Origin: a virus
Taxonomy: Duplodnaviria; Caudoviricetes
Virus record (IMG/VR): IMGVR_UViG_3300002988_000051
Coordinates: 1 to 53,432 of that record
DNA: 53,432 nt
Direction: 5' to 3' (one strand)
Notes under the pieces: model-generated
What the model was told of the DNA's origin: nothing
The model's input: only the letters and a program-made list of their open reading frames with translations
Database searches by the model: none
In this document: piece after piece, positions 1-27,576 of the stretch
Position numbering within the stretch: the stretch's first letter is position 1
How the letters are laid out: every line of letters starts with the position of its first letter
Program-made: the position numbers and the translations under genes

Positions 1-1116
1 TCAACGCGATCTCGATAGGGCATCGGCGGCGCTCCTCAAGTGGTCGGGGGATAGGTGGGAATAGAGCTCGCTCGTCTGGGCGTAAGTGTGGCCGAGCCAT
101 TCGGCGATGCGGAACATGTCGACTCCCGCTTGGGCGAGCCATGATCCGCACGTATGGCGTAGGGTGTGCGGAGTCACGTCGGAAAGACGCGCCCGGCGGC
201 ATGCGTTCGCGAAGCCCTTCTTGATGTCCCCAACCGGGGCCAACCCAGCGGCGCGGATTCTGTTCGCTTGCTCTTCCGTCAACTCGATAACCCACGGCGT
301 TTTTGCCGTCGACTTGGCTGCTTTCATCGCGTCGAGCAACGGATCGGCGATCGGGATCGTCGCCTTTCCCTTCGTCGTTTTCCGTTCTCCAGGCGCTCGT
401 AGGTAGATCAGTTTGCTCGCGAAATCGACCTGAACCCAACGCAGCGACAGAACGGCTTGCTTCCGCGCGCCCGTGTAAAGCGCGACGATCACGAACAGGC
501 GAAGGTAGGGTTCTCGGCACTCCGCGATCAGCGCGTCGGCCTCATCGCGCGTCAACCAGCGTTCACGTTTTGCCGGAGATCCAGGAAGTTTGATCACAGG
601 CGAATGCGTCAGATAGCCGTTCTCGACGCTCCACCTCAATGCGGCGCGCAATGTGGCAAGTTCGAGTCGGATCGTCGTGTCGGTCAGAACAGAATAAACC
701 GCCGGGGCGTCTTTCGTGGCGGGACTGATCGTCCGCGTTCCACGCCCTGTGTCGCGCCGCCATTTCACGTAGGCGTTCAGCGTTTCAGGGGTGATATCGG
801 AAACGAGGCGACTTCCGAAAAAATCCAACAAGAACACGGCGGCTTGGGCCGAACGTCCGCCGCTTTTCAGGTTGGCGGCGTGGTGCTCAAGCCACGTCGC
901 CAAGGCTACCGAGACGGGAAGGGAATCAGGGGATTGGAGGCGTCCGGTTCCATTCTCCTTTTGCCGTTCGCCGAGCCAGCGCGCGAAGAATGCTTCAGCA
1001 TCATCGCGATCTCGCGTGCCCGCGCTAACCCGGCAGTCGCGGCTTCCGTCGTGGTGGACGATGTACCAGACGCCGCCGCGTTGCGAGAGGCGAGGGGGCT
1101 TTCTTGGGCGTGGCAT
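1..1116 (-). CDS. int: Tyrosine recombinase / phage integrase
   Basis: Catalytic motifs YTGARK (R), HTLRH (HxxR), LGH and terminal Y (TSELYSH); N-terminal arm-binding-like segment. Confidence 0.95.
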   Translation of the reverse strand: MPRPRKPPRLSQRGGVWYIVHHDGSRDCRVSAGTRDRDDAEAFFARWLGERQKENGTGRLQSPDSLPVSVALATWLEHHAANLKSGGRSAQAAVFLLDFFGSRLVSDITPETLNAYVKWRRDTGRGTRTISPATKDAPAVYSVLTDTTIRLELATLRAALRWSVENGYLTHSPVIKLPGSPAKRERWLTRDEADALIAECREPYLRLFVIVALYTGARKQAVLSLRWVQVDFASKLIYLRAPGERKTTKGKATIPIADPLLDAMKAAKSTAKTPWVIELTEEQANRIRAAGLAPVGDIKKGFANACRRARLSDVTPHTLRHTCGSWLAQAGVDMFRIAEWLGHTYAQTSELYSHLSPDHLRSAADALSRSR

Positions 1117-1328
1117 CGCTCAACCTTCGACCGTCGGATCCACTCTTCCACGTCCCCAATATCGTAAGCCCACCGGCTCCCTACGCCGCGGTATCCGGCG
1201 AGTAACCCCTTTTCGCGGGCAGTCCTTACGGATCTGGCCGTCACCAGCTTTCCGGTCGGGTCGATCAGCAAAGCGACATCCTCCGCAGTGTAAAGGCGGA
1301 GGCAAACTCCAGCAACCTCTTCGCTCAT
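906..1328 (-). CDS. Excisionase-like HTH protein with C-terminal extension overlapping int
   Basis: ATG at 1328 couples (ATGA) to the upstream stop. LYTAEDVA...SVRTAREKGLLAGYRGVGSRWAYDIGDVEEWI resembles MerR-like/Xis winged HTH; lies directly upstream of int. Confidence 0.7.
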   Translation of the reverse strand: MSEEVAGVCLRLYTAEDVALLIDPTGKLVTARSVRTAREKGLLAGYRGVGSRWAYDIGDVEEWIRRSKVERCHAQESPLASRNAAASGTSSTTTEAATAGLARAREIAMMLKHSSRAGSANGKRRMEPDASNPLIPFPSR

Positions 1329-2095
1329 GCCGCCACCTCCGCGCCCAAGCGGGCGAGAACGTCGACCACGTTGGCGTGTTCGGGCCGGAACGCGATGCGG
1401 ATCACCCACGGGTTATCCTCCCACCGGAAGCCGGGCTTCGGCTTGGTGGAGTCCCAAAGGGTGGCGAAGGCGTCGACCGGATCGGTGAACCACTGATCCG
1501 GCTGTCCGAACCAGTCCGACGAGACGCCTGAGAAATAAAAATTCCCGTCCTCGTTGAAGACCGATAATCCCTCACGGATCGCATCCTCCTCGGTGATATC
1601 TCCCAAGCGCTCGACCGTCACCTCCGTGACGTGCAGGGTGAGGCGGGATGTCCAACGTGGCATGTGGATGCTGGGGCGTAGAACTGGATCATCAGGACCA
1701 TCACCGGAATACCGGTCTGACCATTCCTCCGCGAGATCGTAACTCGGGGCGGGGATCAGAGCCTCGGCCTTGTCCGCGTCATAAATCACCGACACTTTTG
1801 GGATGTCATCAATCGCGTCCGGGTCGTGGTAGTACCCGGGCGCCCACGTCTCGCGGACATAGATCAGGTCGCCGGGAGCGTAGACCAGAAGGTCGCGGTT
1901 GCCGGGCAACTTCAGGAAATCCGCCCCGAATACCGCCAGAGCGTCACGCGCCGCTTGCTTCGTGATCAGCCGCCGCGTGACCGTCTTCCCGGCCCCCGGC
2001 TCGGCGATCTCGCGCAGGGTCGCGCGGACCATTGGCGGGTTAAGCAGCATGGGGTGGACTTTGCCCGTGAAGGGGGTGGGGATGGCGTCAAGCAT
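1325..2095 (-). CDS. ASCH/PUA-like phage protein
   Basis: PMLLNPPMVRA...GAGKTVTRR, PGDLIYVRETW, RPSIHMPRWTSRLTL, ERLGDITEEDAIREG and WEDNPWV match a common prophage ASCH-like family. Confidence 0.75.
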   Translation of the reverse strand: MLDAIPTPFTGKVHPMLLNPPMVRATLREIAEPGAGKTVTRRLITKQAARDALAVFGADFLKLPGNRDLLVYAPGDLIYVRETWAPGYYHDPDAIDDIPKVSVIYDADKAEALIPAPSYDLAEEWSDRYSGDGPDDPVLRPSIHMPRWTSRLTLHVTEVTVERLGDITEEDAIREGLSVFNEDGNFYFSGVSSDWFGQPDQWFTDPVDAFATLWDSTKPKPGFRWEDNPWVIRIAFRPEHANVVDVLARLGAEVAA

Positions 2096-2456
2096 TGGCG
2101 ATCTCCATCAAAACAGCCGCATGACAGGGCTGGTCGAGCGGGCACCAACACGCGAGGTTCTTGCCTCGAAGCTCCGCGCGAACGTCGGCCTCCGTGAACG
2201 GCAACCTCCCGGTCGCAAGCCGTTCCGAAAATCGTTCAACGGCGGTCGCCGCGTCGATGATTCCATCCGTTCGCAAGTCTCGGGTTCCGATCTCGATCGG
2301 GTTCCCAAACCGGCTTCCGCGCCCGACGTAAACGGTGTTCGGCGGCATGCGCCAACCCTTGACACGGCGGCGCTGAACGCGGACGGGGAGAGTGGTTGTC
2401 TTGTGGTCGACGACGATCGGCGTCCAAGCGCCGTAGGCGTTGGGTAGGTCAGACAT
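2088..2456 (-). CDS. DUF4326 domain protein
   Basis: PVRVQRRRVKGWRMPPNTVYVGRGSRFGNP...LRGKNLACWCPLDQPCHA signature; start re-assigned to ATG 2456, which overlaps the upstream stop. Confidence 0.85.
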   Translation of the reverse strand: MSDLPNAYGAWTPIVVDHKTTTLPVRVQRRRVKGWRMPPNTVYVGRGSRFGNPIEIGTRDLRTDGIIDAATAVERFSERLATGRLPFTEADVRAELRGKNLACWCPLDQPCHAAVLMEIANA

Positions 2457-2760
2457 CCGGCACCTCCCGGTGTTGACGCCCGTCGAGCCGATCTCCCGTC
2501 TCCTCCTCTTGACGCTCCCAGAACTGGCAAGCCGCCGCTGTCGGCTTGACGGCGGACGACGGACCGAAATTGTCGTGGTGGGCCATATCGCAGGAAACGC
2601 GGCGCGGCGCTCCGTATGCCGCCATGCGGATGATGATGTTCCGACATGTCCCGCATGTCTCTCCGACGGGGCCGGCTCCGACACGCCCGGCATAGCCCTT
2701 GGCGAGGTCGCGACGACTTTTGACCGTGGCGCCAAAGAGATCACCCATGGTGATTTCCAT
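2449..2760 (-). CDS. Small Cys-rich phage protein
   Basis: GYAGRVGAGPVGETCGTC...C...AACQFWE; GGAG RBS before ATG 2760 (alternative start 2748). Confidence 0.65.
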   Translation of the reverse strand: MEITMGDLFGATVKSRRDLAKGYAGRVGAGPVGETCGTCRNIIIRMAAYGAPRRVSCDMAHHDNFGPSSAVKPTAAACQFWERQEEETGDRLDGRQHREVPDV

Positions 2761-2905
2761 TCCGAAGCTCCAACGCCAACTCTTGCAACGCGATTGCCGC
2801 CGCCATATCAATGATTTTCTCGAATGCGTTGTCCCTTGCTCGCGAAGTCGCGAGCAGCTTATTGGCCGCGCGGATCGCCGCCCGTTCGACGGCGTTGTCA
2901 CTCAT
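2741..2905 (-). CDS. 54-aa hypothetical protein (not in ORF track)
   Basis: Hand translation MSDNAVERAAIRAANKLLATSRARDNAFEKIIDMAAAIALQELALELRNGNHHG; GGAGG RBS; fills the gap with short overlaps at both ends. Confidence 0.6.
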   Translation of the reverse strand: MSDNAVERAAIRAANKLLATSRARDNAFEKIIDMAAAIALQELALELRNGNHHG

Positions 2906-3461
2906 TCCCGCCTCCCTGTTCCGAGAGGGGAAGAATTTGACCAGATCTCCGACGGACCATGAGGAGGAAAGGGAGAACCATCGCCGTCATCCCCATTTTC
3001 CCGACAATCTGCCCGGACATCATGTCTACGGACCCGAATGCCAATAAAAGGAAGACCGCGCTATCAATCACTGATCCGACCAAGTTGGATACCACCACAG
3101 CGGGGATTAGTCGGCGTCGTTGAAGCGGCGTGTAGACCAGAAGGTCGGCCATCTCTCCCAGCAAGAACGCCGCGACCGATGCCCCGACTTGGGACGGCGG
3201 GGAATAGAGACCGGACAGCGCCCCGCCGATCAAGATTGCCGCGACTGTCCATCGCTCGCCCAGTGCGTGCTGGACAAAATCGCGCAAGAGCAAGGCCGAT
3301 CCCACCATTAGGACCCCGGACGGTGCCATAAACCCAAAACCGACCGGGATTAGACACGGACCGTCCGGGACGCAAATGGTCCCTACATTCCCGATCATCC
3401 AATTAGCCGCCGGGATGGTAAGCGCGAAAGCAGTTAGAGCCGCGACTCCGATGGTGTTCAT
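2898..3461 (-). CDS. VUT family (YhhQ-like) queuosine-precursor transporter
   Basis: Multi-pass membrane protein with AANW, G...LLRDFVQ..LG, ASVAAFLLGEMADLLVYTPL, SNLVGSVIDSAVFLLLAFG and GQIVGK motifs. Confidence 0.85.
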   Translation of the reverse strand: MNTIGVAALTAFALTIPAANWMIGNVGTICVPDGPCLIPVGFGFMAPSGVLMVGSALLLRDFVQHALGERWTVAAILIGGALSGLYSPPSQVGASVAAFLLGEMADLLVYTPLQRRRLIPAVVVSNLVGSVIDSAVFLLLAFGSVDMMSGQIVGKMGMTAMVLPFLLMVRRRSGQILPLSEQGGGNE

Positions 3462-4147
3462 GCCGCGTCCTCAAACAAAGGGGCCTGCGTCCCTCGAAGT
3501 TTCCACAAAAGCGGACATTGCACCGCGTCAATAACGCGAGCCATGTATTCGGGGTGGTCGTCGCCGTTCTTGAAGTTTCGCGCGACGTTGACGGAATCAG
3601 CTGAAGCGAAGGGCCACCGCTTCCCAGATAGGGCGAGACCTCGCAGCACGTGAACCCACGGCAATGTCTTGTGGCGCTTGGCGATGGCGTTGAACGCCTC
3701 GTCGGCCCTGCGTTCCCATGATTCACTTCCGACTTGCCAGTAAGTGCCGGAACTGCCGAAGCACACGCGCGGCCATTGGTCGGCGAGGTCAAGCAGATAA
3801 TCCACCGGCAATCCCATGTGCCAGACCGGCGCTCCTAACGCGCGATCGAACGGCCATGCCGCGACAAGAGCGCGCTGTTGCTCCACGTCGCCGTCGATGA
3901 TGTCGGGGATAACCGCCCAATTCGGGTGTCCAAGGCGCGGCTCGATCCAGCGGTAATAGGCAGACCAATTCACCGTTCGCTCCTTTGTGTACGCCGTGAA
4001 TGCACCGGAATCCCACATGACCGACTGCCCGATTCTCAAGCATGTATCGGCATCTCCGGGGTTGGCGAAGGACACACAAAAGCATTTGCCCGCCATGGTC
4101 AGAAGCGCATCGCGCGGAGTCAATGGAGTGCCGTGGTAGTGAATCAT
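3458..4147 (-). CDS. DpdA-like TGT-fold 7-deazaguanine DNA transglycosylase
   Basis: Ordered TGT/DpdA motifs WDSGAFT, VIPDIIDG, APVWH, CFGSSG, WVHVLRG and SADS; ATGA-coupled to the VUT gene; start ATG 4147 (MIHYHGTP). Confidence 0.75.
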   Translation of the reverse strand: MIHYHGTPLTPRDALLTMAGKCFCVSFANPGDADTCLRIGQSVMWDSGAFTAYTKERTVNWSAYYRWIEPRLGHPNWAVIPDIIDGDVEQQRALVAAWPFDRALGAPVWHMGLPVDYLLDLADQWPRVCFGSSGTYWQVGSESWERRADEAFNAIAKRHKTLPWVHVLRGLALSGKRWPFASADSVNVARNFKNGDDHPEYMARVIDAVQCPLLWKLRGTQAPLFEDAA

Positions 4148-4302
4148 TCTCGCCCTCCCCGTTCCGGGAGGGGAAGGGAGCGGATCGCGGCGGCGTAACT
4201 CATGCCACACGTGTTCCCGTGTTCGTGACGCCTGACGAGGCGCCCGGGCAAGATCGTCTCGACGTTCTCCGCGAGATCGAGGAGTTCAGTCTTGTTCATC
4301 AT
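4144..4302 (-). CDS. 52-aa hypothetical protein
   Basis: MMNKTELLDLAENVETIL...; stop overlaps the dpdA-like ATG. Confidence 0.5.
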   Translation of the reverse strand: MMNKTELLDLAENVETILPGRLVRRHEHGNTCGMSYAAAIRSLPLPERGGRE

Positions 4303-4543
4303 CGTAAACCTCGAATTCCTGCGCTTGGAGTCCGACAAGAGCGTCACGAGCGGCATCGTCGAATGAGTCTCCCCATCCTTCAACTTGATCGTCGTCGCTC
4401 GTGACGATCGTCACGCAAAAGTGCGCGCGTGGAGGGGCAAAACCACACGCGTCCTCCTCCGCGCCATTCTCAAGCGACTGGTAGTACTGTAGGTTCCAGC
4501 AGTATCCAGTCGCGATGAGTTCGTTCATGACTTCAGTGTCCAT
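4286..4543 (-). CDS. 85-aa acidic hypothetical protein
   Basis: GGAGG RBS; protein-like composition; part of the coupled operon chain. Confidence 0.6.
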   Translation of the reverse strand: MDTEVMNELIATGYCWNLQYYQSLENGAEEDACGFAPPRAHFCVTIVTSDDDQVEGWGDSFDDAARDALVGLQAQEFEVYDDEQD

Positions 4544-5473
4544 CGCTTACCTCCCCGGCGGGAGGGGGCGGGAGAGGAGCGTTCGGCAAGCGTGTCCAGT
4601 GCGTGTGATATCCGGGCCAGCCGCCGACGTTTCCACGCGCCACAACCCCTGAATGGGTGTGAACCTCAACAACGTGCCCCAGGCATAGAGGCGTGCCCAC
4701 CCACGGGGCTTCCGTGAGGGGAAACGTCCACCACAGCACATTGCCGTCGGCTTCCGTCCACCGCTCAAGCGTGAACATGTCGCCGCTCTTGGCCTCCGGA
4801 GCCGGGACGCCGATCCGCTCGAACCGTCCATCGGCGAACTCGTCCGCTGGGCGCGCCCACAGCGACCCGTCCTCACCGCGGTAAATGACGAGCGTCGCCC
4901 CTCGCGGACAGGTCCGGCGGACGATTGCAACTCGGCCTTGGCGAGCACGGTGTAAGTCGTCCCGCGCTTGACGTGGAGAACGCGGAATGGAAGTTCTTCG
5001 TCTGAAGAGAAGACAACCGGCGTCGGCCAGCCATCCTTGGCCTCCGGGAGCGTGGATCGAACGGCCCCGACCAACACATCTTTCGCGGCCTGGATGTGGT
5101 CCCCGGCCCCCACCGCCATTCCCGGAACGTCACAGTTCGGGTCGGTGTGCCACTTGACGATGTACTGGACGCGAAAGATCGCGTTGTTCAGTTTGCCCAT
5201 CGCCAAATATGCGGCATCTCTCAGCGCCTTGATGCGCCGATTGTGCTCGGCCAAGCTTTCGTTCAAGCCGCCGATTAGGGCATCGCGCCCATTGAGGGAT
5301 TCGACGCACAAATCGCGCTCCGCCTCCAAATCCGCGACGCGGGCGTGAAGGCGCCGGATCACGTTGGCGGCGACCTCCAGATCTCCTCGCCCGACGCAGA
5401 ACTGCGGTCGGCTCGAAACGTCGATCCCCGCGAGCGCGGCGGACACCTCGTCGGGAGTGGGGATGTCATTCAT
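4533..5473 (-). pseudogene. Multi-domain phage protein (coiled coil + DUF1653-like + W-rich domain) broken by a 1-nt frameshift
   Basis: HVKRGTTYTVLAKAELQSSAGPVREG continues as ATLVIYRGEDGSLWARPADEFADGRFE only if one G is added to the G4 run at 4898-4901. That frame then joins ORF 4533..4778. Confidence 0.7.
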
Positions 5474-5649
5474 CGCGCATCCTCTCCGGCGGGAAACCGA
5501 TCGCCGAGCCAAGCGGCGGCGAGTTCGTCGATTAGGTTGAAGTCGTCCTCGACCTCCTCGGTCGAGCGGCGGGTGAGGAGCGAGACGCGCTCCTGTTCCC
5601 GGAAGGCCCGCCGACGGCTGACGGGCTTGGCGTTCGAGCGGTGGGCCAT
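5470..5649 (-). CDS. 59-aa hypothetical protein
   Basis: ATG 5649 directly after the ATPase stop; its stop overlaps the next ATG (ATGA). Confidence 0.55.
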   Translation of the reverse strand: MAHRSNAKPVSRRRAFREQERVSLLTRRSTEEVEDDFNLIDELAAAWLGDRFPAGEDAR

Positions 5650-5650
5650 C

Positions 5651-7384
5651 TCAAGCCGCCTTCGGCGTTTTGAACGCCGCGACGGCATCGACGATCGGAG
5701 ACGTGACGCCCGCCTCGACCCAGTAGACGCGGCCCTTCCCGGCCTTCGCGAGGTCGGGGGGGAGATCGGGAGCCGAGTAGGTCATCGTGACCAGGGCCGC
5801 GATTCCCACGTCATGCAGCATGAGGATCAACCCCGACCGGCCACGCGCGTCCAACACGTCGGCGGCGTCGATGACGACCAGCGGATCACCCTGGAGGCGC
5901 GCGACGGCGACTTGCAGGATCACCCGCGCCTTGAATTGGTCGGACGCGATTTGCGGGCCGTGCCCGGCGAGCGCGGCGTAGGGGCGACCGCCGAAGGTGA
6001 CGGACATGTCCGGCTCGATCCGAACGTGATCCCATTGCGCCGGCGCGCAAAGCTCGGCGAGCGGACCGTCGTTGAAGGCGGTCAACACCTTTTCCAGGCG
6101 CGACTGGCGCAACCCGGTCGGTTCGACGATCGCGCGGACCCGCGCGTTGAGGTCGAGCAGTCGAACGCACTCGTCCGCCTTCGCCTTGGCCTCCACCGCC
6201 TTCAATCGCCTCTCGGCTTCCGCCACGGCGGCGCGCGCGACGTCCACGGCATCGGCGGTTCCGGCGCCGCGATCTTCCCCGATCTCCGCCAGCTTCCGGG
6301 CGGCGGCTTCCGCCTCGGTCAACGCGGCGCGCGCGGTCGACTCTTGAGCGACGAGCGCCGACAACTCACCCTTGGCCTTCGAGAGTTTGCCGTCGGCGGA
6401 GGCGATGTTCATACGGCGCGCACGCAACTCCTCCTCGCCGATCCGATCGGCCTCGACGAGGCGCTTGTCGGAGCCGAGATTGTGAGCGAGGCGGAGCATC
6501 GAGCCGCAGCATGGGCACGTCAGACCGTCGGCCTGTTCGGCGGGCGGCAGCGCCTCGCGCGCCATCTCCGCGGCGTCGTGCGCCGTCTCCGCGTCGGCAC
6601 GCGCCCGGACTAGTTTCTCCAGCGCGTCGCGCCGCAAGTCCATCGCGTCGGCCAAGGCCTTGAGCCGGGTCACTTCGCCCGCATCGGCGCCCTGGACGCG
6701 GAGCGCGTCGTCAAGCGCCCCCCGGGCCGACTTCACCGCCGCCCTCAGAGCTTCGACGGTCGCGGCGGCGAGATTCGGCGTCCAGCCCGCCGGGAGCCAA
6801 TTCGCGGCCTTCTCGGATCCGTAGTTTTTCTCCCCGGTCGCGTCCGCCCATTTGTATTTGAGCGTCCGGCCTTTATCCTCCAGATCTTTCAGCTTGCCGT
6901 CCCACCCCAGCGCCTCGATCCCTTCCCACACCTTGGCCGCGATGTCGTCGGTGATTCCCCCGTCGGCGCAAGCTCCCATGAAGTCGTCGCGCGTCGGCGT
7001 GGTGTGCAGCAGGTCGGCCAGCAGCTTTGACCGCTCCTTCGCGTCCATGTCGATGACGGACTCGATCCCGGCGGCGATCGGGTGGACGGACGGCGCGGCG
7101 CCCTCGGACGCGGCCTTGCAGTCCGGCCACGTCGCGCGGGCGGTCCCGTTGGGAGTGGAGACGACGGCGGTCGCGGTCTTGCGGCCCGAGCGAACGAGAC
7201 GCCCGGCGTCCTTTTTCGCGAGGCGCCCCGGCTGCAAAAGGCCGGTCAAGACGCACGCCGTCACTTTCGCGATCGACGACTTGCCCTGGGCGTTCCGTCC
7301 GGCGATCAGGGTGATTCCCTCGCCCGCCTCGATGTCGGCGACCTCCACCACCTGGAAGTCGCGAATGGCGATCTTCATCGTCAT
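5651..7384 (-). CDS. SMC/Rad50-like ABC ATPase with zinc hook
   Basis: Walker A GRNAQGKS, long Ala-rich coiled coils, central CPCC, C-terminal Walker B/D-loop LVVIDAADVLD. Confidence 0.85.
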   Translation of the reverse strand: MTMKIAIRDFQVVEVADIEAGEGITLIAGRNAQGKSSIAKVTACVLTGLLQPGRLAKKDAGRLVRSGRKTATAVVSTPNGTARATWPDCKAASEGAAPSVHPIAAGIESVIDMDAKERSKLLADLLHTTPTRDDFMGACADGGITDDIAAKVWEGIEALGWDGKLKDLEDKGRTLKYKWADATGEKNYGSEKAANWLPAGWTPNLAAATVEALRAAVKSARGALDDALRVQGADAGEVTRLKALADAMDLRRDALEKLVRARADAETAHDAAEMAREALPPAEQADGLTCPCCGSMLRLAHNLGSDKRLVEADRIGEEELRARRMNIASADGKLSKAKGELSALVAQESTARAALTEAEAAARKLAEIGEDRGAGTADAVDVARAAVAEAERRLKAVEAKAKADECVRLLDLNARVRAIVEPTGLRQSRLEKVLTAFNDGPLAELCAPAQWDHVRIEPDMSVTFGGRPYAALAGHGPQIASDQFKARVILQVAVARLQGDPLVVIDAADVLDARGRSGLILMLHDVGIAALVTMTYSAPDLPPDLAKAGKGRVYWVEAGVTSPIVDAVAAFKTPKAA

Positions 7385-7403
7385 GATGATGTTTCCCTTC
7401 CGA

Positions 7404-8429
7404 TCAGGTGTTGCCGAACAGTTGATCGTCGTCCCCGGCCTGGGGCGCGGGGGCGGGCTTGGTCGCCGCGACCGGCGCGGGCTTGACGCCGTCGTTCTCG
7501 AACACCTCGCCCGTCTCCGGATCGTGATCGAGACGCGCGGCCTCGTTCATGACGGCGTCGGAATCGGCGGGAGTGTCCCCGTCGTCCGTCAAAACCGTGA
7601 AGTCGCCATCAAGCACGGTATCGAGGCCCTGCGGCTTGCCGGATCCCGACCGATCGTCGAGCGCCGCCGCGTTGGCGAGTTCGATGGACATCGGGAGATA
7701 TTTCGTCAGGCGGCGGATGACGGTCTTCTTCGCCATTTCCTCCCAGTGAGTGATCCAGGGGGTGTCTTTCTTGTCGAAGCGAAGAGCGGTTTTGTATCCT
7801 TGAGATTCGTCCCGAACCCGATTTATTTCCGGCGTCGACATGAACTCGAATTGCACGCCGCCGCCGACGAGCTTGGCGACGGCGTAGACGCCGGTCACCG
7901 GTCCTCGATCGCCGTCCAGATACGGCTTGTGCGTGATGGAATCGGTGGTGCCGTAATCGATGTCGAAGTCGTCGCGTTTGTGGACGACGCGGGCCGACAG
8001 GCTGACGATTTGACCGGAACGCCGAGCGAGATCGATCAGGCCCTTGTAGCCGACGACGATCTGAACCTCGGTCGTGCCCTTCCTCTTGTTGCCGAAGGGG
8101 ATGAGGTAGATATGCCCCTGCGGTGTGTTCGGCTCCAGTCCGAGCTGGGCGCACACGACGACGGCGCCGAACAGGCTGTTGAGCGTGCACTCCATCAGTT
8201 TCGGCGTGGTGCGAAGCGCACCGAGCGTGATCTTGAGCATGCGATCCGGCGACATTTTCTCCGGCAAAAGCGCCTTCAACGTCGGTTTGTTCGCCTCGAA
8301 GAAGTCGGCGACGGTCGTTCCGCCGGCCTCCTTGGCGACCAAGTGTCCGGTCTTGCGGATTTCGGCGAGCGAGCGGGCGGCGGCGAGGGGCGGAGGGGTG
8401 GCCCCCTTGGGAGCGGCGGCGGTGGTCAT
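7404..8429 (-). CDS. recT: RecT single-strand annealing recombinase
   Basis: LLPEKMSPDRMLKI, CAQLGLEPN..GHIYLIPF, IVGYKGLIDLARRSG and PWITHWEEMAKKTVIRRL.KYLPMS motifs. Confidence 0.93.
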   Translation of the reverse strand: MTTAAAPKGATPPPLAAARSLAEIRKTGHLVAKEAGGTTVADFFEANKPTLKALLPEKMSPDRMLKITLGALRTTPKLMECTLNSLFGAVVVCAQLGLEPNTPQGHIYLIPFGNKRKGTTEVQIVVGYKGLIDLARRSGQIVSLSARVVHKRDDFDIDYGTTDSITHKPYLDGDRGPVTGVYAVAKLVGGGVQFEFMSTPEINRVRDESQGYKTALRFDKKDTPWITHWEEMAKKTVIRRLTKYLPMSIELANAAALDDRSGSGKPQGLDTVLDGDFTVLTDDGDTPADSDAVMNEAARLDHDPETGEVFENDGVKPAPVAATKPAPAPQAGDDDQLFGNT

Positions 8430-8776
8430 GATGGGCAATCCTCAGAATCGTTGGAAGTCTTGGCGGCGGACGCGCGCGCTTCGCGGAACAGCGTCCGGCA
8501 GATCGCGGCGGTGAGTAATTCGAGCGACGTTGGATGGAACAGACACAGGGGGCGCCGCTTCGGGGTCCGTCCCTGAAGGTGATGCCGAGCCTCTTTCGAG
8601 CGATCACTGCCCTTCCAGAGCACGTTCCGACCGCCTCCTCGCCACGAATGCCGTTCGGAAAGCGACAGGAACTCCGGTACCGCGATCCCGATCCGCCGCA
8701 GTTGTCCGCGCCGAAGGTGGAACCTGACCGTGACGTAACGGGAGAACGGGCTGGATCGTCGGCGGGGCAACATCAC
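8426..8776 (-). CDS. Basic hypothetical protein
   Basis: GTGA/ATGA overlaps with both neighbours; no recognisable motif. Confidence 0.45.
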   Translation of the reverse strand: MMLPRRRSSPFSRYVTVRFHLRRGQLRRIGIAVPEFLSLSERHSWRGGGRNVLWKGSDRSKEARHHLQGRTPKRRPLCLFHPTSLELLTAAICRTLFREARASAAKTSNDSEDCPS

Positions 8777-9666
8777 GCGGCCTCAGCCAAATCGGTGACG
8801 GCATGCTCGCGGCAAAAGCTCGATCCCCAAGCCGGACACCATTTCGCCGAGCAGAGTTTGGAGCCGGGGTTGGCGGGGAAGGCCCACGGGTCGCCCGGCT
8901 GAATGCGGAGCCGGGCGTCGCCCTCGCGAAACGTCCGAATATCGGCCTCGATGTGGGCCAGCACCGCGACGGCGGCGGTTTCGCACGCGGCGAGGTCGTA
9001 GACGACGACCAGGACGTCCGGTTGCGGCTTCTTCACGGCCACGCGCGGGATGTAGTCGATCATCGCCGACTGGACGGTCAGTCCGTGGGACCGCTGCAGG
9101 AGGCTGTACGCGCCGACCTGGGGGCCGTGATAGCCGAGATGCGTGCCGGTTTTGAGGTCGTGAAGCGCGGTCGGGGTGCGGGCGAGGATGTCGCTTTGAC
9201 CGGACACGACGACCGCGGGAGACACCATCGCCTCCAGCCGCTCCTCGATCGTCAAGGGATCGATTCCGGGGGCGATCGAAGAGCGAAAGACGCGGGCCAT
9301 GCGCGCCACCTGGATCTGTCCGTCGTTGAGGTTCGGCGTCACCCGGGCGTCGAACTCCACCCCGGCCTCGGCCTTGTCGAACTCGACGCGCAAGGCCTCG
9401 ACCGCGACCTCCTCGGTGTCGGCGACGGACGGCAAGTCTCCGCCGGTTTTCATCTTGTGGCGGAGCACTTCCGCCGACGCGGCGTGGACGGCGGTTCCGA
9501 CCGTGGCGCCGATGCCGGTACCGAGCGTCCGAATGTCGTAGCCGGCGGCACGGACATCCTCCGCGAAGATGCGGGCGGCGGCGCGGCGCGGGCAATCGGC
9601 GTAGTTCGACAGCGACGAGGCGCGGATGGTGGTGATCGCCGACGCGGGCGTGATCGTGTCCATCAC
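8773..9666 (-). CDS. PD-(D/E)XK (RecB/Cas4-like) exonuclease, probable RecT partner
   Basis: IRASSLSNYADCPR, GQSD, LHDLKTG, QVGAY and three C-terminal Cys (LCSAKWCPAWGSSFC), consistent with an Fe-S staple. Confidence 0.85.
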   Translation of the reverse strand: MMDTITPASAITTIRASSLSNYADCPRRAAARIFAEDVRAAGYDIRTLGTGIGATVGTAVHAASAEVLRHKMKTGGDLPSVADTEEVAVEALRVEFDKAEAGVEFDARVTPNLNDGQIQVARMARVFRSSIAPGIDPLTIEERLEAMVSPAVVVSGQSDILARTPTALHDLKTGTHLGYHGPQVGAYSLLQRSHGLTVQSAMIDYIPRVAVKKPQPDVLVVVYDLAACETAAVAVLAHIEADIRTFREGDARLRIQPGDPWAFPANPGSKLCSAKWCPAWGSSFCREHAVTDLAEAA

Positions 9667-10325
9667 ACGGCCTCCGCCAAGTCGGCGCCCGCGCCGTTCG
9701 CGGGGGCGACCGGGGCGGTATCGCGCGAACGGCGTTTGATCTCCTTATGGATCGCCATGCACGCGATCACGTCGAACATCGCGTTGTGGGCGCCGGTCAT
9801 CTCCCGGCCCAACAAACCGACGTGCGCCTCGGCCAAGTTCGGAGCCTTGAACGACTTACCCCGACCCGCCGCGACCATCTTCTCGGTCGCGGGCAACTTG
9901 AGGAGCGGGGTCGCGAGCCGCATCGTGCATTCCGCCGCGCCCTCCGACCAAATATCCGGGTCGAAGATCCCGGAATACCGGTGGAGAGCGATGCGAATGA
10001 TCCGGGCGTCGAAGTTCTCGTTGTGGGCGACGCGAAGATCGGCGCGGGACCAAAGGGCGATGAACGCCGCCAAGGCCACGCACTCCGGCACCCCGCCGAT
10101 GGTCGCGCGTTCCGGCGTGATGCCGGTCAGGCGCTGAACGTCCTCGGGAATGCTCCACCCGTCCGGGCGGACGATCAGATCGATGGATCCCAACTTCTTG
10201 CCGCCGTCGTCGGCCAGAAACGCCGCGACCTGGGTGAGGTGGGGCTGACAGGGATCCTCGGACGGCTCGCGCCAGAGCGGGAAGCCGGTCGTCTCCGTGT
10301 CGTAGTAGAGGGTGATCGGCATCAT
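9663..10325 (-). CDS. DEDDh (DnaQ-like) 3'-5' exonuclease
   Basis: ExoI YYDTETTG, ExoII AHNENFD, ExoIII AHNAMFD. Confidence 0.9.
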   Translation of the reverse strand: MMPITLYYDTETTGFPLWREPSEDPCQPHLTQVAAFLADDGGKKLGSIDLIVRPDGWSIPEDVQRLTGITPERATIGGVPECVALAAFIALWSRADLRVAHNENFDARIIRIALHRYSGIFDPDIWSEGAAECTMRLATPLLKLPATEKMVAAGRGKSFKAPNLAEAHVGLLGREMTGAHNAMFDVIACMAIHKEIKRRSRDTAPVAPANGAGADLAEAV

Positions 10326-10327
10326 CC

Positions 10328-10816
10328 TCACTCCTTGGGGGAGTCGAGCGCGGCGCCGAGCGCCTTTACCAGTTCGAACGCCTTTTTGCGAACGTTGGGA
10401 TCGGTGATCCGGTAGTAGGCGCGAACCATCTCCAGCGTCTCGCGCTTGGCCATGGGATCCGGCTCGTAGGCGGGCGCGACCCGCTCCGCTTCACCCCCCT
10501 CGTCGTCGTAGACGCGGGCGGTCGCCGCCTCTTCCGGCATGTCATCGAAGAAAAAGGAAACCGGAACGTCGAGGATGGTGGACAGGATCCAGAGCTTCGA
10601 CGCGGAGACGCGATTGGCGCCGCGCTCGTATTTTTGAACTTGCTGGAAGGTCAAGTTGATCGCCTCGCCCAGCTTCTCCTGGCTCATACCCAAAAGCGTG
10701 CGGCGAAGGCGGATCCGAGAACCGACATGCGCGTCGATCGGATTGGGGATGTCGAGCTTCGGACGTCCGACCCGGCGCTCGGGCGAAGTGGTGGCGGAAA
10801 CGCCGATGGCGTTCAT
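10328..10816 (-). CDS. XRE-family regulator resembling alphaproteobacterial PraR/PhrR
   Basis: PNPIDAHVGSRIRLRRTLLGMSQEKLGEAINLTFQQVQKYERGANRVSAS...VPVSFFFD and KRETLEMVRAYYRITDPNVRK; GGAG RBS before ATG 10816. Confidence 0.88.
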   Translation of the reverse strand: MNAIGVSATTSPERRVGRPKLDIPNPIDAHVGSRIRLRRTLLGMSQEKLGEAINLTFQQVQKYERGANRVSASKLWILSTILDVPVSFFFDDMPEEAATARVYDDEGGEAERVAPAYEPDPMAKRETLEMVRAYYRITDPNVRKKAFELVKALGAALDSPKE

Positions 10817-10838
10817 GTCTCGTACTCCATTTTCGCGG

Positions 10839-11352
10839 TGGTGGTTCGGGGTGCCGGGCCTCTCACCCGACTTGGCGTTCTTACGGATCACTGACCGTGC
10901 CTCCAGTGGTTCGCCGATTAGCTCCATGCCGGCTGATCGGGCCGGTGCCACGGCTGGATGCGGGAGGCCCCGCTCCTCTGCTTCGTTGACCCGAAGGCCG
11001 AATGGGCGCCCCGCTCTCACGCGGCGGGGCTTACGCCACCCGTCAACGCCATTTCCCTGCAACGGTGGACGCAAGTTCTCTACCAGTGGCGCTGCGCCGG
11101 ATCTCGGCTACTCGATCACCTCGCCGCGATACAGGGTCTTTCCCTCCCGGTCCGGCCCAACTCTCCGAAAACCGATCAACGGGTGGATCGCCTTGAACTC
11201 ATGCCCTTACGGGCGTGTCGCTTCCGCTGTCGCGTAACCGGTCCGCGGATGACCTGTTCCCGTCGCGACTTGGGCCTTCGGTTGGATCGGCTCCATCCCT
11301 TCGGCGTGCTCCATGCCGTATCCGGCAAGGCCGAATGCACCGAACTCGAAAC
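10839..11352 (-). ncRNA. Candidate large structured RNA in the early-left transcript
   Basis: ~510 nt without a credible ORF in an otherwise tightly coupled operon. Contains GNRA and cUUCGg hairpins, a T-arm-like hairpin, complementary ends and two 11-nt internal repeats. Confidence 0.5.
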
Positions 11353-11505
11353 TCAGTCCTCGCCCTCGTCGTCTTCGAGATCGCTCCGGTCGTCCTCAAC
11401 GACTTGCGAATTACGAGCGCCGCAATCAGGGCACTCGGTGTGCGTCAGGTTGGAGAGGGGGCCTTTCCAGACCACGCCTCCACCGCCGCATCGACCACAG
11501 ATCAA
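11353..11505 (-). CDS. 50-aa zinc-ribbon protein with acidic tail
   Basis: TTG start with GGGAGG RBS overlapping the upstream TGA; CGRC...CPDC. Confidence 0.6.
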   Translation of the reverse strand: MICGRCGGGGVVWKGPLSNLTHTECPDCGARNSQVVEDDRSDLEDDEGED

Positions 11506-11657
11506 TTCGCACCTCCCGCGGCTACGAAGCCGCCGACGACGATCAACGACACTCCGACGACCGCGACCACGAACGGAAACGCGCGGACGAGGGAGCGGGC
11601 GGAGAGGACGAGCGAAAGGAAGTCGGAAAACCGGATCGGTTCGTTGACGGTCCTCAT
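11502..11657 (-). CDS. 51-aa small membrane protein
   Basis: GGGAGG RBS; hydrophobic FPFVVAVVGVSLIVVGGFVAA. Confidence 0.55.
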   Translation of the reverse strand: MRTVNEPIRFSDFLSLVLSARSLVRAFPFVVAVVGVSLIVVGGFVAAGGAN

Positions 11658-11675
11658 GTTCGCCTCCCATGATTT

Positions 11676-11755
11676 GAAAAGTCCCGCCGGAACCGGTGTG
11701 TTTGAACGAACGGAACCGGCGGGAGAGTTGTCCGCCTCCAGGGGAGGGGGCGGAC
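11676..11755 (-). other. C-rich-loop hairpin + AACT linker + terminator-like hairpin (cuckoo/alpha-r14-like module)
   Basis: GTCCGCC-CCCTCCCCTGGA-GGCGGAC (11755-11730), AACT, then TCCCGCCGG...CCGGCGGGA and CTTTT. Confidence 0.5.
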
Positions 11756-11772
11756 GTGGACGGGGTTTGTGA

Positions 11773-12237
11773 TCAAGCCGCGGCCAAACCGCGCCAGTGC
11801 GCGGACACGGCGCGCTCGTAGCTCGGGTTCTCGGCGACGGCCTCACGCCAAATCCTCACCCGCCGAACGGCGTCGGTGTGGTCGCGGCGGGCGCGGCGCA
11901 GTTCACGAAGGCAGTGGGGGATGTCGAAATACGTGGAGCCCCAGCCGTTGTGCAACCAGAGACGGCTTTCGCCCGACGCGCGGATCTCGCGGATCGCGTT
12001 AATTTCCCAACGGGCGTCGGCGAGAGAGGACCGCGCGTCGCGTTCGGCGCGCTCCAGCATCTCCTCGGCGATCTTTCCGGCGTCGGCGGCGGTGATCGGG
12101 TGTTTCTCGCGAGCGATCGTCGCCCGCATACGGCTCGTGTCCGTCTCCCGCATCGCGTCGCGGAAGAGGACGTTCCCGAAGTCGTCGAATTGCGCGGGCG
12201 TGAGAAACTCGGACGGGGGGAAGAGGCACGCGTTCAT
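11773..12237 (-). CDS. 154-aa hypothetical protein
   Basis: GGAGGG RBS; ATGA coupling; helical composition. Confidence 0.65.
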   Translation of the reverse strand: MNACLFPPSEFLTPAQFDDFGNVLFRDAMRETDTSRMRATIAREKHPITAADAGKIAEEMLERAERDARSSLADARWEINAIREIRASGESRLWLHNGWGSTYFDIPHCLRELRRARRDHTDAVRRVRIWREAVAENPSYERAVSAHWRGLAAA

Positions 12238-12614
12238 CGGCTCAAACCCTCCCCGCCGAGGGAAGCCGAGGTCGCCGTCGAGGCGAGAGCGGAGACGAGC
12301 CAGTCATAGTCGTCGGGGATCGCACCCCGCGTCAGGCGACCACCCTCGATCATGTCAGAGAGACCGGCGCGAAGCGCGCGGCAAGCGGTGAGTTCGCCGT
12401 CGCGCGGATCCGCAACCGCCATCCCGTCAAGGGAAAGCGCGAATCTCGCGACGGCAAGCGCATCTCGAACGTGGTCGACGATTTCTCGCGGATCTTCCGA
12501 AAGGGTCTGGGACATCGCCGCCGCCAAGTGGTCGCGTACATCCGAAAGCGCCCGCCACATCGTGGAGACGGAAAGCTGAGCCTTCAGCAGTTCGGTTTCG
12601 TCGATACCCATCAT
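12234..12614 (-). CDS. Hypothetical protein, first gene after PL
   Basis: GGAGGGG RBS; protein-like composition. Confidence 0.65.
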   Translation of the reverse strand: MMGIDETELLKAQLSVSTMWRALSDVRDHLAAAMSQTLSEDPREIVDHVRDALAVARFALSLDGMAVADPRDGELTACRALRAGLSDMIEGGRLTRGAIPDDYDWLVSALASTATSASLGGEGLSR

Positions 12615-12630
12615 CCCCTCCATTCCCCGA

Positions 12631-12674
12631 AAGCCCGGCCCACGTCATTGCGCGGGACCGGGAAGTTCGGGAGG
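12631..12674 (-). terminator. PL leader hairpin (attenuator/terminator-like) preceded by CCTCCCGAACT
   Basis: CCCGGTCCCGCG-CAATGA-CGTGGGCCGGG followed by CTTT. Confidence 0.45.
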
Positions 12675-12709
12675 AAACGCGACACCGGGTGGCGTCGGCC
12701 GATGAGGGG

Positions 12710-12765
12710 ATATTCTCGCTATAACGAGAGTATGTCAATCGGAAAAATCTCGGCATAGCGAGAAT
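12710..12765 (-). promoter_or_regulatory. PL promoter with two repressor operators
   Basis: TTGACA (12738-12733)-N17-GAATAT (12715-12710); operators ATTCTCG-N6-CGAGAGT (12712-12731) and AATCTCG-N6-CGAGAAT (12746-12765). Confidence 0.8.
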
Positions 12766-12839
12766 GCTCGCGGAAGGCGTTCATGGCACCCTACCTGGGT
12801 TGCATCGATCTCGGTGCGTGCTCGGGTATGGAGGGGGTG

Positions 12840-13649
12840 ATGGGCGGTCGACGATGGACTCGCGTTGCCATTGTCGTTTTGGTGTTTGGTGTGACGCCTT
12901 TAAGCGCAACCCGCGCGTTTGAATTCAGGCACGGAGAAAGGATAATATCTATTAGAGACGTGCCTGGGTTTTGTGAAATTTCTGACGCAGATATAAGTAA
13001 AAAACTTAAGCGAAATATTCGTTCTGATGACAAAAATTTCTATTATATTGGTGGGGCATCTGTGTGCAGTGGCGCTGGTTCTGAGAACGGCGATAGGTAT
13101 TTGCTGTTTTTTGAATATAAGAACGGACAACTGGATGACGGCGGGCAATTTGATGTTTCTAGCAAAAATTATCTAGACGCCGTCAATGAAAGTTTCGTAT
13201 CTCCATTTGTCAATGGAGTAAAGTCTAAGAATAAAGGAGCAGATATAAATATTAGTTCGGACATATACAAGACAAAAAATCTCAATATTACGGATTTTTC
13301 TTTTGACTCGACGTCAGTATCTGGAACTGTTTCGACGTTATGCGCATGTCTGTATTCTTACAGCCTTCCGGGCGGCGTTGTTAGTTCGTTTTTATTTGGG
13401 AAATGTGATGGGGTCGATATTGAAAAGCTATCAAGGAGTGTTGTTGGGTCAATCACTCTAGGCAAGATTTCAATTGATAAGGAATACCGGCGACCAACTG
13501 CGATAGAAAATTCCGCTTCCAGCGCAAGACATTCTGTGTATGGAAAGGCGATTATTGGAGGATTTACGGGAGGGTTCTTTATGGTAATTATAATTATATT
13601 ACGCGTCGCAAGAACGATCTATAGAAAATACAAGCGAATTCCGTTCTGA
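12840..13649 (+). CDS. AT-rich exported protein with C-terminal membrane anchor (cargo)
   Basis: Signal-peptide-like N-terminus, several Cys, C-terminal TM followed by a basic tail; strongly AT-rich versus the flanks. Confidence 0.8.
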   Translation: MGGRRWTRVAIVVLVFGVTPLSATRAFEFRHGERIISIRDVPGFCEISDADISKKLKRNIRSDDKNFYYIGGASVCSGAGSENGDRYLLFFEYKNGQLDDGGQFDVSSKNYLDAVNESFVSPFVNGVKSKNKGADINISSDIYKTKNLNITDFSFDSTSVSGTVSTLCACLYSYSLPGGVVSSFLFGKCDGVDIEKLSRSVVGSITLGKISIDKEYRRPTAIENSASSARHSVYGKAIIGGFTGGFFMVIIIILRVARTIYRKYKRIPF

Positions 13650-13823
13650 AAATTGGGGATGCCCTTCTCAAAACCCGCGAAGACGTTGCGGAACTCAAGG
13701 GGCGGATGCCGGGGATTTGAAGGCCAGCTTCGCCAAGTCCCGACCATCTGGACGATCGCGGGCCTGGTTTTCGCGATCTTCGCCGCCGCTTTCGCGCTTC
13801 TGAGGTACGGACTTCCCCACTGA
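13646..13823 (+). pseudogene. 5'-truncated, frameshifted coiled-coil + TM gene remnant
   Basis: LKIGDALLKTREDVAELKGRMPG / FEGQLRQVPTIWTIAGLVFAIFAAAFALLRYGLPH* read in two frames; no start codon; abuts the AT-rich gene. Confidence 0.5.
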
Positions 13824-13827
13824 CCGC

Positions 13828-13885
13828 TCACTCCGCCCCGAGCGCGCGACGCGCGGCGTCCGCCAGAAACGCCGAGCGGTTGGCG
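13828..13885 (-). pseudogene. Possible C-terminal remnant of a HicB/RHH-type antitoxin
   Basis: ANRSAFLADAARRALGAE* resembles the RSAFLA.AAR..L end of HicB RHH domains; the upstream part is unrelated. Confidence 0.35.
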
Positions 13886-14054
13886 GACCCCGGCGTCTTT
13901 CTTCCCACGAGCGCGTCAGAGGGGACCTCGGGGACGAACATCGTCGAGGCGACGTTGAAAACGACTCGGGCCGGGGATACATTACTCGCGAGCGGCGCAA
14001 CGAAGATCGGCGACATGGTTGTCCAGATCGTGGCCGAACGATTGAGAGGGCTTG

Positions 14055-14303
14055 ATGAATAACCCGATCGCCCTTGAGCTTCTGCAAAACGCGGTCAGGA
14101 ACCAGATGGAGATATCGAGAGAGGTCATCGATCTCGTCGGCGCGCTGAACGCCGCCATCGAGCGCGAAAGCGATCCGGCCATCAAGGATCAGCTTACCGA
14201 GATCGCAGAGAAATTCATCGGGGTTGGGAAGAAATCCGTCACGTCGGCGCGGGACACCGGAAGGCTGGCGATTCATCTCGTTCGCGATCGAAACGCGGCA
14301 TAG
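14055..14303 (+). CDS. 82-aa helical protein (cargo)
   Basis: GAGGG RBS; amphipathic helical composition. Confidence 0.7.
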   Translation: MNNPIALELLQNAVRNQMEISREVIDLVGALNAAIERESDPAIKDQLTEIAEKFIGVGKKSVTSARDTGRLAIHLVRDRNAA

Positions 14304-14307
14304 GAAG

Positions 14308-14634
14308 ATGCCGCGCGAAGATTTGAACAACGGGTTGAACGAGCTTCGATCGCTGGCGAATAGCGTCGATTCGGAACTAAAGCCATTCGTGGGAATCGAT
14401 GTCCCGGAAATCACGAAAGCTCACAGGGCGATACGGGAAGACAACACGAGATCACGCATCACGGTAACGATCGTTTTCGCGTTCGTCGCATGCGTCGCGT
14501 CGGTGATCGTCGCCGCTTTGTTTGGAGTATCAACTCCGGAAAATCTATCAGCGGCGTCGTCCATCGTTGAGAAAACGGCCTTGCCGATCGTGACATTGGT
14601 TCTCGGGTACTATTTTGGATCGTCCAGAGGCTGA
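14308..14634 (+). CDS. 108-aa two-TM membrane protein (cargo)
   Basis: ATG 4 nt after the previous stop; two hydrophobic segments ending LVLGYYFGS. Confidence 0.75.
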   Translation: MPREDLNNGLNELRSLANSVDSELKPFVGIDVPEITKAHRAIREDNTRSRITVTIVFAFVACVASVIVAALFGVSTPENLSAASSIVEKTALPIVTLVLGYYFGSSRG

Positions 14635-14673
14635 TCTTCACTCCGGCCAGAACTCCGCATCCATGATCGCCCC

Positions 14674-14928
14674 TCAGATCCCGGCGGCTTTACGCAGCGT
14701 CTCGTCGATCCGGCTTTGCCAGCCGGGGCCGGAGGCCTTGAAATGCTCGACGACATCGCGGCTCAGACGGATGGAAACGGGTATCTTGGTCGGTATCTTT
14801 TGCGGGCCGCGCGTGCGGGGAAACGCCGCCAAAATCGCGGGCGGCAGTTCGCTCGCGGGCTTTGACCGACGAAAGTCATCATCGACCCACTCCGGGTTCT
14901 CCGCGTCGATCTTCGGTTCATCCGACAT
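14674..14928 (-). CDS. brnA: BrnA family antitoxin
   Basis: DAENPEW.DDDF, RGPQKIPTKIPVSIRLSRDVVEHFKASGPGWQSRIDETLR. Confidence 0.92.
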   Translation of the reverse strand: MSDEPKIDAENPEWVDDDFRRSKPASELPPAILAAFPRTRGPQKIPTKIPVSIRLSRDVVEHFKASGPGWQSRIDETLRKAAGI

Positions 14929-15700: not shown

Positions 15701-15715
15701 TCGGCAGAGGCCAGC

Positions 15716-27565: not shown

Positions 27566-27576
27566 GGGACCGCTCC

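Follow-up and report, generated by a model that had tools for sequence, protein, structure and literature searches.

What could a temperate phage do with a homologue of the 7-deazaguanine transglycosylases when no gene for the synthesis of 7-deazaguanine bases is found in its genome? This question is raised by two adjacent genes in the provirus record IMGVR_UViG_3300002988_000051 of the IMG/VR database (Caudoviricetes). The entire record, 53,432 bases in length, was analysed and is referred to below as the window; it was estimated by CheckV to be 88% complete, so that up to ~12% of the provirus is possibly missing. The genes encode P0001, related to the DpdA enzymes, and P0002, related to the transporters of the VUT/YhhQ family. 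In our opinion, the two genes probably represent a cassette of the "import and insert" type, by which phage DNA would be modified with 7-deazaguanine. The elements in question are as follows.

3458..4147, minus strand: dpdA-like gene (P0001), ATG start, 229 amino acids (aa), TIM-barrel 7-deazaguanine transglycosylase homologue
2898..3461, minus strand: VUT/YhhQ gene (P0002), hydrophobic membrane protein of 187 aa, VUT/YhhQ family (COG1738, formerly DUF165)
3458..3461, minus strand: ATGA in which the stop codon of dpdA overlaps the start codon of VUT (translational coupling), from direct reading of the sequence

An initial annotation, made from the letters of this DNA only, had described a module of two genes at 2898..4147 in a temperate phage: a short, divergent DpdA with ordered TGT-fold motifs, ATGA-coupled to a YhhQ/VUT transporter, with no folE, queD, queE or queC in the window. 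Both genes were confirmed at these coordinates, with intact reading frames on the minus strand, and the stop codon of the first overlaps the start codon of the second as described; the other parts of the description have also held, on the evidence given in the following paragraphs. The start of P0001 is likely to be the ATG at 4147, rather than the GTG at 4210, because its homologues begin at the same MIHYHGTP.

The relationship of P0001 to DpdA can be seen at several levels of sequence comparison. The protein matched PHROG 887, named "queuine tRNA-ribosyltransferase", with an E value of 7.9e-43. Homologues numbering 3062 were found, and among those listed a Pfam domain was present in 0 of 120. 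A tblastn search gave 105 phage records, including the phages SfI, SEN1, BTP1 and Athena1 at 36–40% identity, whose proteins are entered as DpdA in Supplementary Data 1 of Hutinet et al. 2019. DpdA of Pantoea phage MED16 proved to be 35% identical to P0001 (tblastn); according to PMC8306585, dADG makes up ~0.13% of G in the DNA of this phage and dpdA is the sole pathway gene. Finally, a family profile of P0001, built from 54 homologues, was aligned by hhalign with DpdA of phage CAjan over 160 columns (probability 98.3%, E 1.2e-14), and it has been reported that deletion of dpdA in CAjan abolishes dPreQ0 (PMC7544227).

The motifs noticed at first reading are all present in the order DSGAF (46–50), PD (81–82), PVWH (107–110), GSSG (131–134), HVLRG (166–170) and SADS (182–185), and they coincide with conserved columns of the family. 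Conservation was counted over the 54 diverse homologues, down to ~30% identity: no variation was seen at D82, H110, G131 and H166, and at least 90% of the homologues retain D46, G48, A49, P81, D184 and S185. In CAjan DpdA, the catalytic residues Asp63 and Asp206 and the pocket residues Ser64, Phe67, Asp105, His132, Gly153/154 and Phe189 have been assigned (PMC7544227). In the hhalign alignment, Asp63 (general base) corresponds to D46 of P0001 and Asp206 (nucleophile) to D184, whereas the pocket residues Ser64, Phe67, His132 and Gly153 correspond to S47, F50, H110 and G131; Gly154 and Phe189 are aligned with S132 and L168. We therefore predict D46 as the general base, D184 as the nucleophile and S47, F50, H110 and G131 as parts of the pocket; of these six residues, four (D46, D184, H110 and G131) are retained by at least 90% of the homologues.

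The structure prediction and profile comparison, by which the initial annotation could have failed, gave a TIM barrel with TGT, DpdA and Cap10 among the best matches, in addition to the alignment with CAjan DpdA. The model of P0001, calculated by AlphaFold2 on the alignment of homologues, has a predicted local distance difference test (pLDDT) value of 96.4, a predicted template modelling score (pTM) of 0.92 and eight beta/alpha units. It was compared by VIA-align with 48,161 solved chains. ArcTGT (1iq8) took the first rank with Z 15.0 and Cap10 (9ntn) the second with the same Z, a root-mean-square deviation (rmsd) of 3.3 Å and 217 aligned residues; DpdA (7ui4) followed at rank 4 (Z 13.7 over 197 residues) and TGT (3unt) at rank 5 (Z 13.3). 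Among the viral models of BFVD, 26 matches had E <= 1e-3, and all the named ones were phage "queuine tRNA-ribosyltransferase" (DpdA). The protein is shorter by ~80–350 residues than CAjan DpdA, bacterial DpdA and the TGTs and, as modelled, is a bare (beta/alpha)8 barrel with neither a zinc nor a C-terminal subdomain. On the profiles and the model, P0001 is assigned to the phage DpdA branch of the TGT superfamily as a minimal member.

Its partner can be assigned to a family more readily than to a substrate. P0002 exceeds the gathering score of Pfam Vut_1 (PF02592; 45 bits, cut-off 27.2, E 1.9e-11), the aligned residues 89–168 lying in its C-terminal half, and matches PHROG 4899 over the whole length with E 1e-33. 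It has thousands of homologues of 170–195 aa, named as VUT family, YhhQ or queuosine precursor transporter, and shares 58% identity with gp26 of Sinorhizobium phage phiLM21 and, over 96 aa, 40% with the "putative preQ0 transporter" of CAjan, so that the YhhQ/VUT label given initially is borne out. About 5–6 membrane segments were indicated by hydropathy; a sequence search of the PDB with P0002 gave nothing at E <= 1. The model NF008406, made for YhhQ of E. coli, was matched with 21.3 bits at a cut-off of 252. Thus, P0002 falls within the VUT/YhhQ family and is a predicted importer of 7-deazaguanine bases, to which the equivalog models assign no substrate.

From where would such a base come? 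Six-frame searches of the window with QueC (TIGR00364), QueD (PF01242), FolE (PF01227) and Radical_SAM (PF04055) gave 0 matches each, and a Pfam scan of the 65 open reading frames (ORFs) of the window found no FolE, QueD, QueE or QueC; the absence of these genes, as claimed earlier, is thus upheld for a record that is 88% complete. Within the same limit of completeness, the window agrees with the definition of a "DpdA-only" phage (group 3 of Hutinet et al. 2019, with or without YhhQ), in which DpdA is present and FolE, QueD, QueE, QueC and Gat-QueC are lacking.

For comparison, 84 loci encoding a close relative of P0001 were collected, 80 of them from IMG/VR records and 4 from genome contigs. 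A short QueC-like ORF was found in 2 of the 46 related viral records of at least 12 kb (out of the 80), with 44 lacking it, and in 0 of the 6 related records rated at least 90% complete. In the two records concerned (L045 and L050, numbered G425 and G427), this ORF has ~186 aa and is recognised in stretches of 88–92 and 45–48 bits, each below the cut-off; in L050 the QueC-like ORF is present and a VUT gene was not found. Two metagenome-assembled genomes (MAGs) can be added as isolated cases. A QueC with full score (208 bits) is encoded in the pair-carrying MAG G002, whose sole VUT gene is the one beside DpdA; in the MAG G001, which carries a P0001-type gene, there is no QueC above the cut-off and a VUT gene is located elsewhere.

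Another neighbour of the DpdA-like gene was noticed in these relatives. A small gene of 78–96 aa stands beside it in 32 of the 84 loci, as well as in Rhizobium phage RHph_X2_30, mostly between VUT and DpdA, for example:

L077:9635-9895, plus strand: small QueF-Like gene in a related locus
L037:9768-10001, plus strand: small QueF-Like gene in a related locus
L028:9461-9748, plus strand: small QueF-Like gene in a related locus

A Cys-Pro-x-Asp motif is invariant in the product, which is not recognised by Pfam. Its model (pLDDT 95.4) shows a T-fold, best matched by QueF-Like 5jyx (TMq 0.92, rmsd 1.3 Å), the preQ0-binding archaeosine synthase QueF-Like. The occurrence of this neighbour independently ties the P0001 clade of DpdA to preQ0 chemistry, and the small protein may convert inserted preQ0 further on DNA. 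The gene is absent from the window, which is the barest form of the cassette for this reason. As a separate observation, a 98-aa ORF annotated as "6-carboxytetrahydropterin synthase" abuts the DpdA-like gene in Caulobacter phage DMCA (L086, 5705-6726), the DpdA-like protein of which is 44% identical to P0001; this ORF gave no match to the hidden Markov model (HMM) of the small QueF-Like gene.

The association of the enzyme with the transporter was studied in the same set of 84 loci. A VUT gene was found next to the P0001 relative in 74 of them by tblastn with P0002. With an HMM built from the tblastn matches, it was adjacent, and always on the same strand, in 77 of the 83 loci having a DpdA-like ORF, downstream in 20, as in the window (~57% identity), and upstream in 57 (30–40% identity). 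No VUT gene was found in 6 of the 83 loci, in one of which only 108 bases precede DpdA, and a VUT gene upstream would not be visible. The 4-nt overlap of dpdA and VUT is repeated in Rhizobium phage RHph_N3_2 and several related loci, whereas in RHph_X2_30 the VUT gene is situated two genes upstream of DpdA; the isolated phages Pam5, Tbat1_6 and PEAT2 likewise carry the pair. Among 401 species genomes of the class to which G001 belongs, a search with P0001 matched only the centre genome at E <= 1e-20 (1/401).

Seven ORFs of the window, taken from both sides of the pair, were also searched for in the 84 related loci, and 0 of the 7 recur. Because the flanking ORFs do not recur while the pair does, it may be concluded that DpdA and VUT move between phage backbones as a cassette. 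A functional link between the two, rather than mere common inheritance, is supported by this comparison of loci, with further evidence from phiLM21, in which the same VUT clade is paired with a DpdA that cannot be aligned with P0001.

The action of the cassette can be proposed as follows. After induction, one message would yield P0001 and, via the ATGA coupling, P0002; expression at this stage is probable because the genes lie in a leftward block together with the int, xis-like, RecT and exonuclease genes. P0002 would import a free 7-deazaguanine base from outside the cell, a host-made precursor being the only other source since the phage is without FolE, QueD, QueE and QueC. By analogy with TGT and DpdA, a G of the phage DNA would be flipped out, D184 would attack C1' and guanine would be released, while D46 would deprotonate the incoming base (preQ0 or a close derivative, e.g., ADG or preQ1), which would take the place of guanine. 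The progeny DNA would contain a low-to-moderate amount of modified G and would be a poorer substrate for restriction. As suggested in the initial annotation, expression might be confined to lytic growth, and the Q-tRNA pool of the host might be depleted.

A number of results weigh against this reading, and some of them concern the identity of the enzyme. P0001 was not matched by the Pfam TGT family PF01702 and had no Pfam match at E <= 1, and a six-frame search of the window with PF01702 gave 0 matches, compared with 14 of 14 control genomes matched. NCBIfam also gave no match to P0001. Sequence searches of the PDB with P0001 and with its profile returned no chain, the best E values of 0.64 and 0.22 belonging to unrelated proteins. 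Pocket residue Asp105 of CAjan is aligned with D85, which is unconserved in the family, the invariant D82 being found three residues earlier. Generic TIM barrels come close behind the TGT-family chains in the structural comparison (PdxJ with Z 13.7, aldolases with 12.6–13.0), and for this reason the fold search alone would not decide what P0001 is. In Foldseek, the best PDB match, Cap10 (9ntn), has an E value of only 8e-4.

The place of Cap10, the top match by Foldseek and joint top by VIA-align, suggests another role, in which P0001 would handle a 7-deazaguanine–protein conjugate, like the TGT-like Cap10 of type IV CBASS, and have a protein as its target; protein deazaguanylation is a known reaction (PMC11996544). 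However, ArcTGT, DpdA and TGT score about as high as Cap10, searches of the window revealed neither a Cap9/QueC-like gene nor one for a CD-NTase, and the neighbours in related loci are YhhQ and QueF-Like, not CBASS. We regard a protein target as extremely improbable.

The tie at the top of the structural comparison includes ArcTGT, a tRNA enzyme, which leads to the idea of queuosine-precursor salvage on tRNA, for the benefit of the lysogen or for the retuning of translation in infection, with no modification of DNA. A YhhQ-type importer and a TGT reportedly make up a minimal set for queuosine salvage in some bacteria. On the other hand, the detectable sequence relatives of P0001 are phage DpdAs, some of them tied to modified DNA, and its gene, instead of being set apart as a moron, is tied to its neighbours in the leftward block through overlapping codons. 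The structure of the protein also speaks against a tRNA enzyme. In TGT structures, the barrel is followed by a zinc-binding subdomain with a Cys/His cluster. No Cys of P0001 is conserved above 65%, the only invariant His residues are H110 and H166 of the pocket, and no conserved Cys/His cluster was found; the C-terminal RNA-binding part is missing from the bare barrel as well. P0001 as a canonical TGT was rejected for the lack of a PF01702 match and of the zinc subdomain and because the protein ends soon after the barrel. Salvage on tRNA seems improbable to us.

Other points concern the transporter. The score of P0002 against TIGR00697, "queuosine precursor transporter", is 39.1 bits, below the cut-off of 50.95, and a yhhQ deletion in CAjan, a phage which makes its own preQ0, is reported to keep wild-type modification (PMC7544227). 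The DNA could then be modified with host-made preQ0 or the QueC intermediate ADG, and VUT could be an accessory useful at a low host pool or a transporter of some other solute. Consistent with this are the enterobacterial phages SfI, SEN1, BTP1 and MED16, having DpdA without YhhQ, the 6 related loci without a VUT gene and the full-score QueC in the pair-carrying MAG. CAjan, with its complete set of genes for preQ0, is however of little use as a guide, and selection on the pair is suggested by the position of VUT beside DpdA in 77 of the 83 loci, where both gene orders occur, and by its combination with two DpdA subfamilies that are unrelated. A mere accessory role of the transporter is rather unlikely, though it retains some weight in our estimate. 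It should be taken into account that many of the 84 loci are near-identical and all were chosen by their likeness to P0001, so the linkage counts do not represent independent events.

The effect on DNA is a further matter. According to PMC8306585, Mycobacterium phage Orion has DpdA yet no DNA modification, and the dADG of MED16, at its low level, barely affected the restriction enzymes tested. It could be supposed from these cases that the enzyme in the window is catalytically silent or vestigial and the pair has no measurable effect. Against this stand the intact reading frames, the catalytic and pocket residues kept across the 54 homologues and the retention of the pair as a unit across many phage backbones, and such an outcome is, in our view, very improbable.

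Import and insertion of a 7-deazaguanine base into phage DNA is, therefore, the reading we prefer. A bolder version of it, that the clade of short DpdAs without zinc, which is almost always accompanied by a VUT permease of its own, forms a distinct salvage-dependent system, in which the DNA mark is set by environmental supply, is considered unlikely. If it were true, the imported base could be other than preQ0 (preQ1, ADG, queuine or another 7-deazapurine), the relatives with the QueF-Like gene could convert the base further on DNA, and the level and chemistry of modification, together with escape from restriction, would vary with habitat instead of being fixed by the phage genome.

The surroundings of the pair are those of a prophage. 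The leftward block, in which the pair is included, extends over 1–12.6 kb, and the following features were recognised in it.

1-1116, leftward block: tyrosine integrase (family scan)
906-1409, leftward block: weak excisionase-like ORF (family scan)
1325-2095, minus strand: protein of PHROG 874 (function unknown), on the xis/int side of the cassette, not recurring in related loci
2088-2744, minus strand: DUF4326 protein (PHROG 464), between the cassette and the xis/int end, not recurring in related loci
2741..2905, minus strand: ORF downstream of VUT, overlapping the end of the VUT gene, without family match
4144..4147, minus strand: ATGA overlap of the stop of the upstream 79-aa ORF and the dpdA start, from direct reading of the sequence
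4144..4383, minus strand: 79-aa ORF upstream of dpdA, without family match
5651-7384, leftward block: SbcC-like ATPase
7404-8438, leftward block: RecT
8773-9666, leftward block: PD-(D/E)XK exonuclease
9663-10331, leftward block: RNase T-like exonuclease
10328-11074, leftward block: HTH_3 regulator

Through the overlap at 4144-4147 and that of the ORF 2741..2905 with the VUT gene, the pair forms part of a longer series of coupled genes running leftward. The small neighbouring ORFs at 4144-4383 and 2741-2905 were considered as a possible third component and rejected, having no family match and being absent from all 84 related loci; as judged from this absence, the 79-aa ORF is context and lies outside the cassette. 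A scan of 1-15000 for promoters and terminators gave nothing above the shuffled expectation, with no minus-strand promoter near the pair, and so the placement of the pair in an early leftward ("PL") operon is by synteny only. There are no tRNA genes in the window, hence no clue to an att site.

The rightward block contains genes for a helicase, a replication initiator, terminase, a T7-type portal, capsid, a 2587-aa polyvalent protein and a holin. The integrase, the RecT and exonuclease genes, the HTH regulator and the provirus label show that the phage is temperate, in agreement with the initial annotation. Its host is probably an alphaproteobacterium, since the named capsid homologues come from Bradyrhizobium, Kiloniellales, Pelagibius and Tagaea and the named P0001 homologues from Ensifer, Sinorhizobium, Mesorhizobium and Agrobacterium. 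A blastn search with the block from terminase to capsid (25602-31557) revealed no close relative among isolated phages, the coverage of the block being <=10%.

Some other features of the window can be mentioned. The ORF 39602-47365 (plus strand, 2587 aa) contains LPD22 and LPD3 large-polyvalent-protein domains and a PBECR3 Barnase/EndoU/colicin-like nuclease domain and is probably an injected multi-domain protein of a podovirus-like phage. On the opposite strand, directly before this gene, there is a toxin–antitoxin-like pair (39033-39619, minus strand), consisting of a Gp49/HigB-like gene (39326-39619) and an HI1420-type antidote with a helix-turn-helix motif (39033-39323). Between the leftward and rightward blocks, the stretch 12000-16000 has a lower GC fraction (0.55–0.58, compared with ~0.65 elsewhere), and its ORFs, e.g., 12783-13649 (plus), 13695-14414 (minus) and 14615-15205 (plus), matched no Pfam or PHROG family. 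This stretch may be an immunity or moron region.

Taken by itself, the window is an ordinary result, and the present data add incremental points only, namely the near-constant presence of VUT beside DpdA and, in relatives, a third gene of the QueF-Like type. They provide a sound name for a large set of proteins called "hypothetical" in databases and indicate that, in the P0001 clade, the enzyme is inherited together with its YhhQ-type importer as a single cassette. Should the salvage reading be true, the pair would be the smallest known kit for placing 7-deazaguanine in DNA and would be convenient for testing the dependence of a phage DNA mark on precursor availability. No description of the short DpdA clade as obligately VUT-linked turned up in a literature search whose full-text coverage is thin for subscription journals.

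Among the systems already known, bacterial DpdA (the Dpd system of Salmonella Montevideo, 7UI4) and the bacterial and archaeal TGTs share with P0001 the barrel fold (Z 13.3–15.0). These proteins have 370–580 residues with extra domains, in contrast to P0001, which has neither conserved zinc ligands nor a Pfam TGT match and, in comparison with the bacterial Dpd system, no DpdB/DpdC partners. The cluster of CAjan (dpdA, folE, queD, yhhQ, queC, queE) is similar in the profile-level homology of DpdA, the same catalytic residues and a short YhhQ; it differs in its own preQ0 synthesis, a DpdA of 306 aa, a dispensable YhhQ and the virulent nature of the phage. Phage YhhQ genes inside full clusters were described for CAjan (PMC7544227) and EC151.

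Closer in sequence are the singleton DpdAs of MED16 (gp38), SfI, SEN1, SW9 and BTP1, which belong to the P0001 subfamily (35–40% identity, PHROG 887) and have no accompanying synthesis genes, but come from enterobacterial phages without a YhhQ gene. Hutinet 2019 placed these proteins in "group 3, DpdA only", and in PMC8306585 they make up cluster DpdA/TGT_1.

Closer in layout is the temperate alphaproteobacterial phage phiLM21, where DpdA gp25 is followed by the short VUT gp26 and no preQ0 synthesis genes are listed. Unlike P0001, gp25 has 274 aa and belongs to another DpdA subfamily, as the two could not be aligned (BLASTP E 0.16; hhalign probability 4.7%), and the pair runs rightward after cro, whereas that of the window lies in the leftward block. 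It can be observed from the phiLM21 locus (L088, pair at 3123-4474) that one permease clade serves two very different DpdA subfamilies.

Hutinet et al. 2019 described 76 phages in which DpdA occurs without synthesis genes, and in Supplementary Data 1 of that paper, Clostridium phage CDKM15, halophage eHP-6 and Sinorhizobium phage phiLM21 are entered with DpdA and YhhQ only. Thus, the layout of DpdA and YhhQ without other pathway genes is already in print, and the pair of the window is a further member of this group. The closest copy of its exact layout in an isolated phage is that of RHph_N3_2, in which EVB98_054 (226 aa, 48% identical to P0001), annotated merely as hypothetical, is followed with a 4-nt overlap by EVB98_055 (DUF165, 58% identical to P0002).

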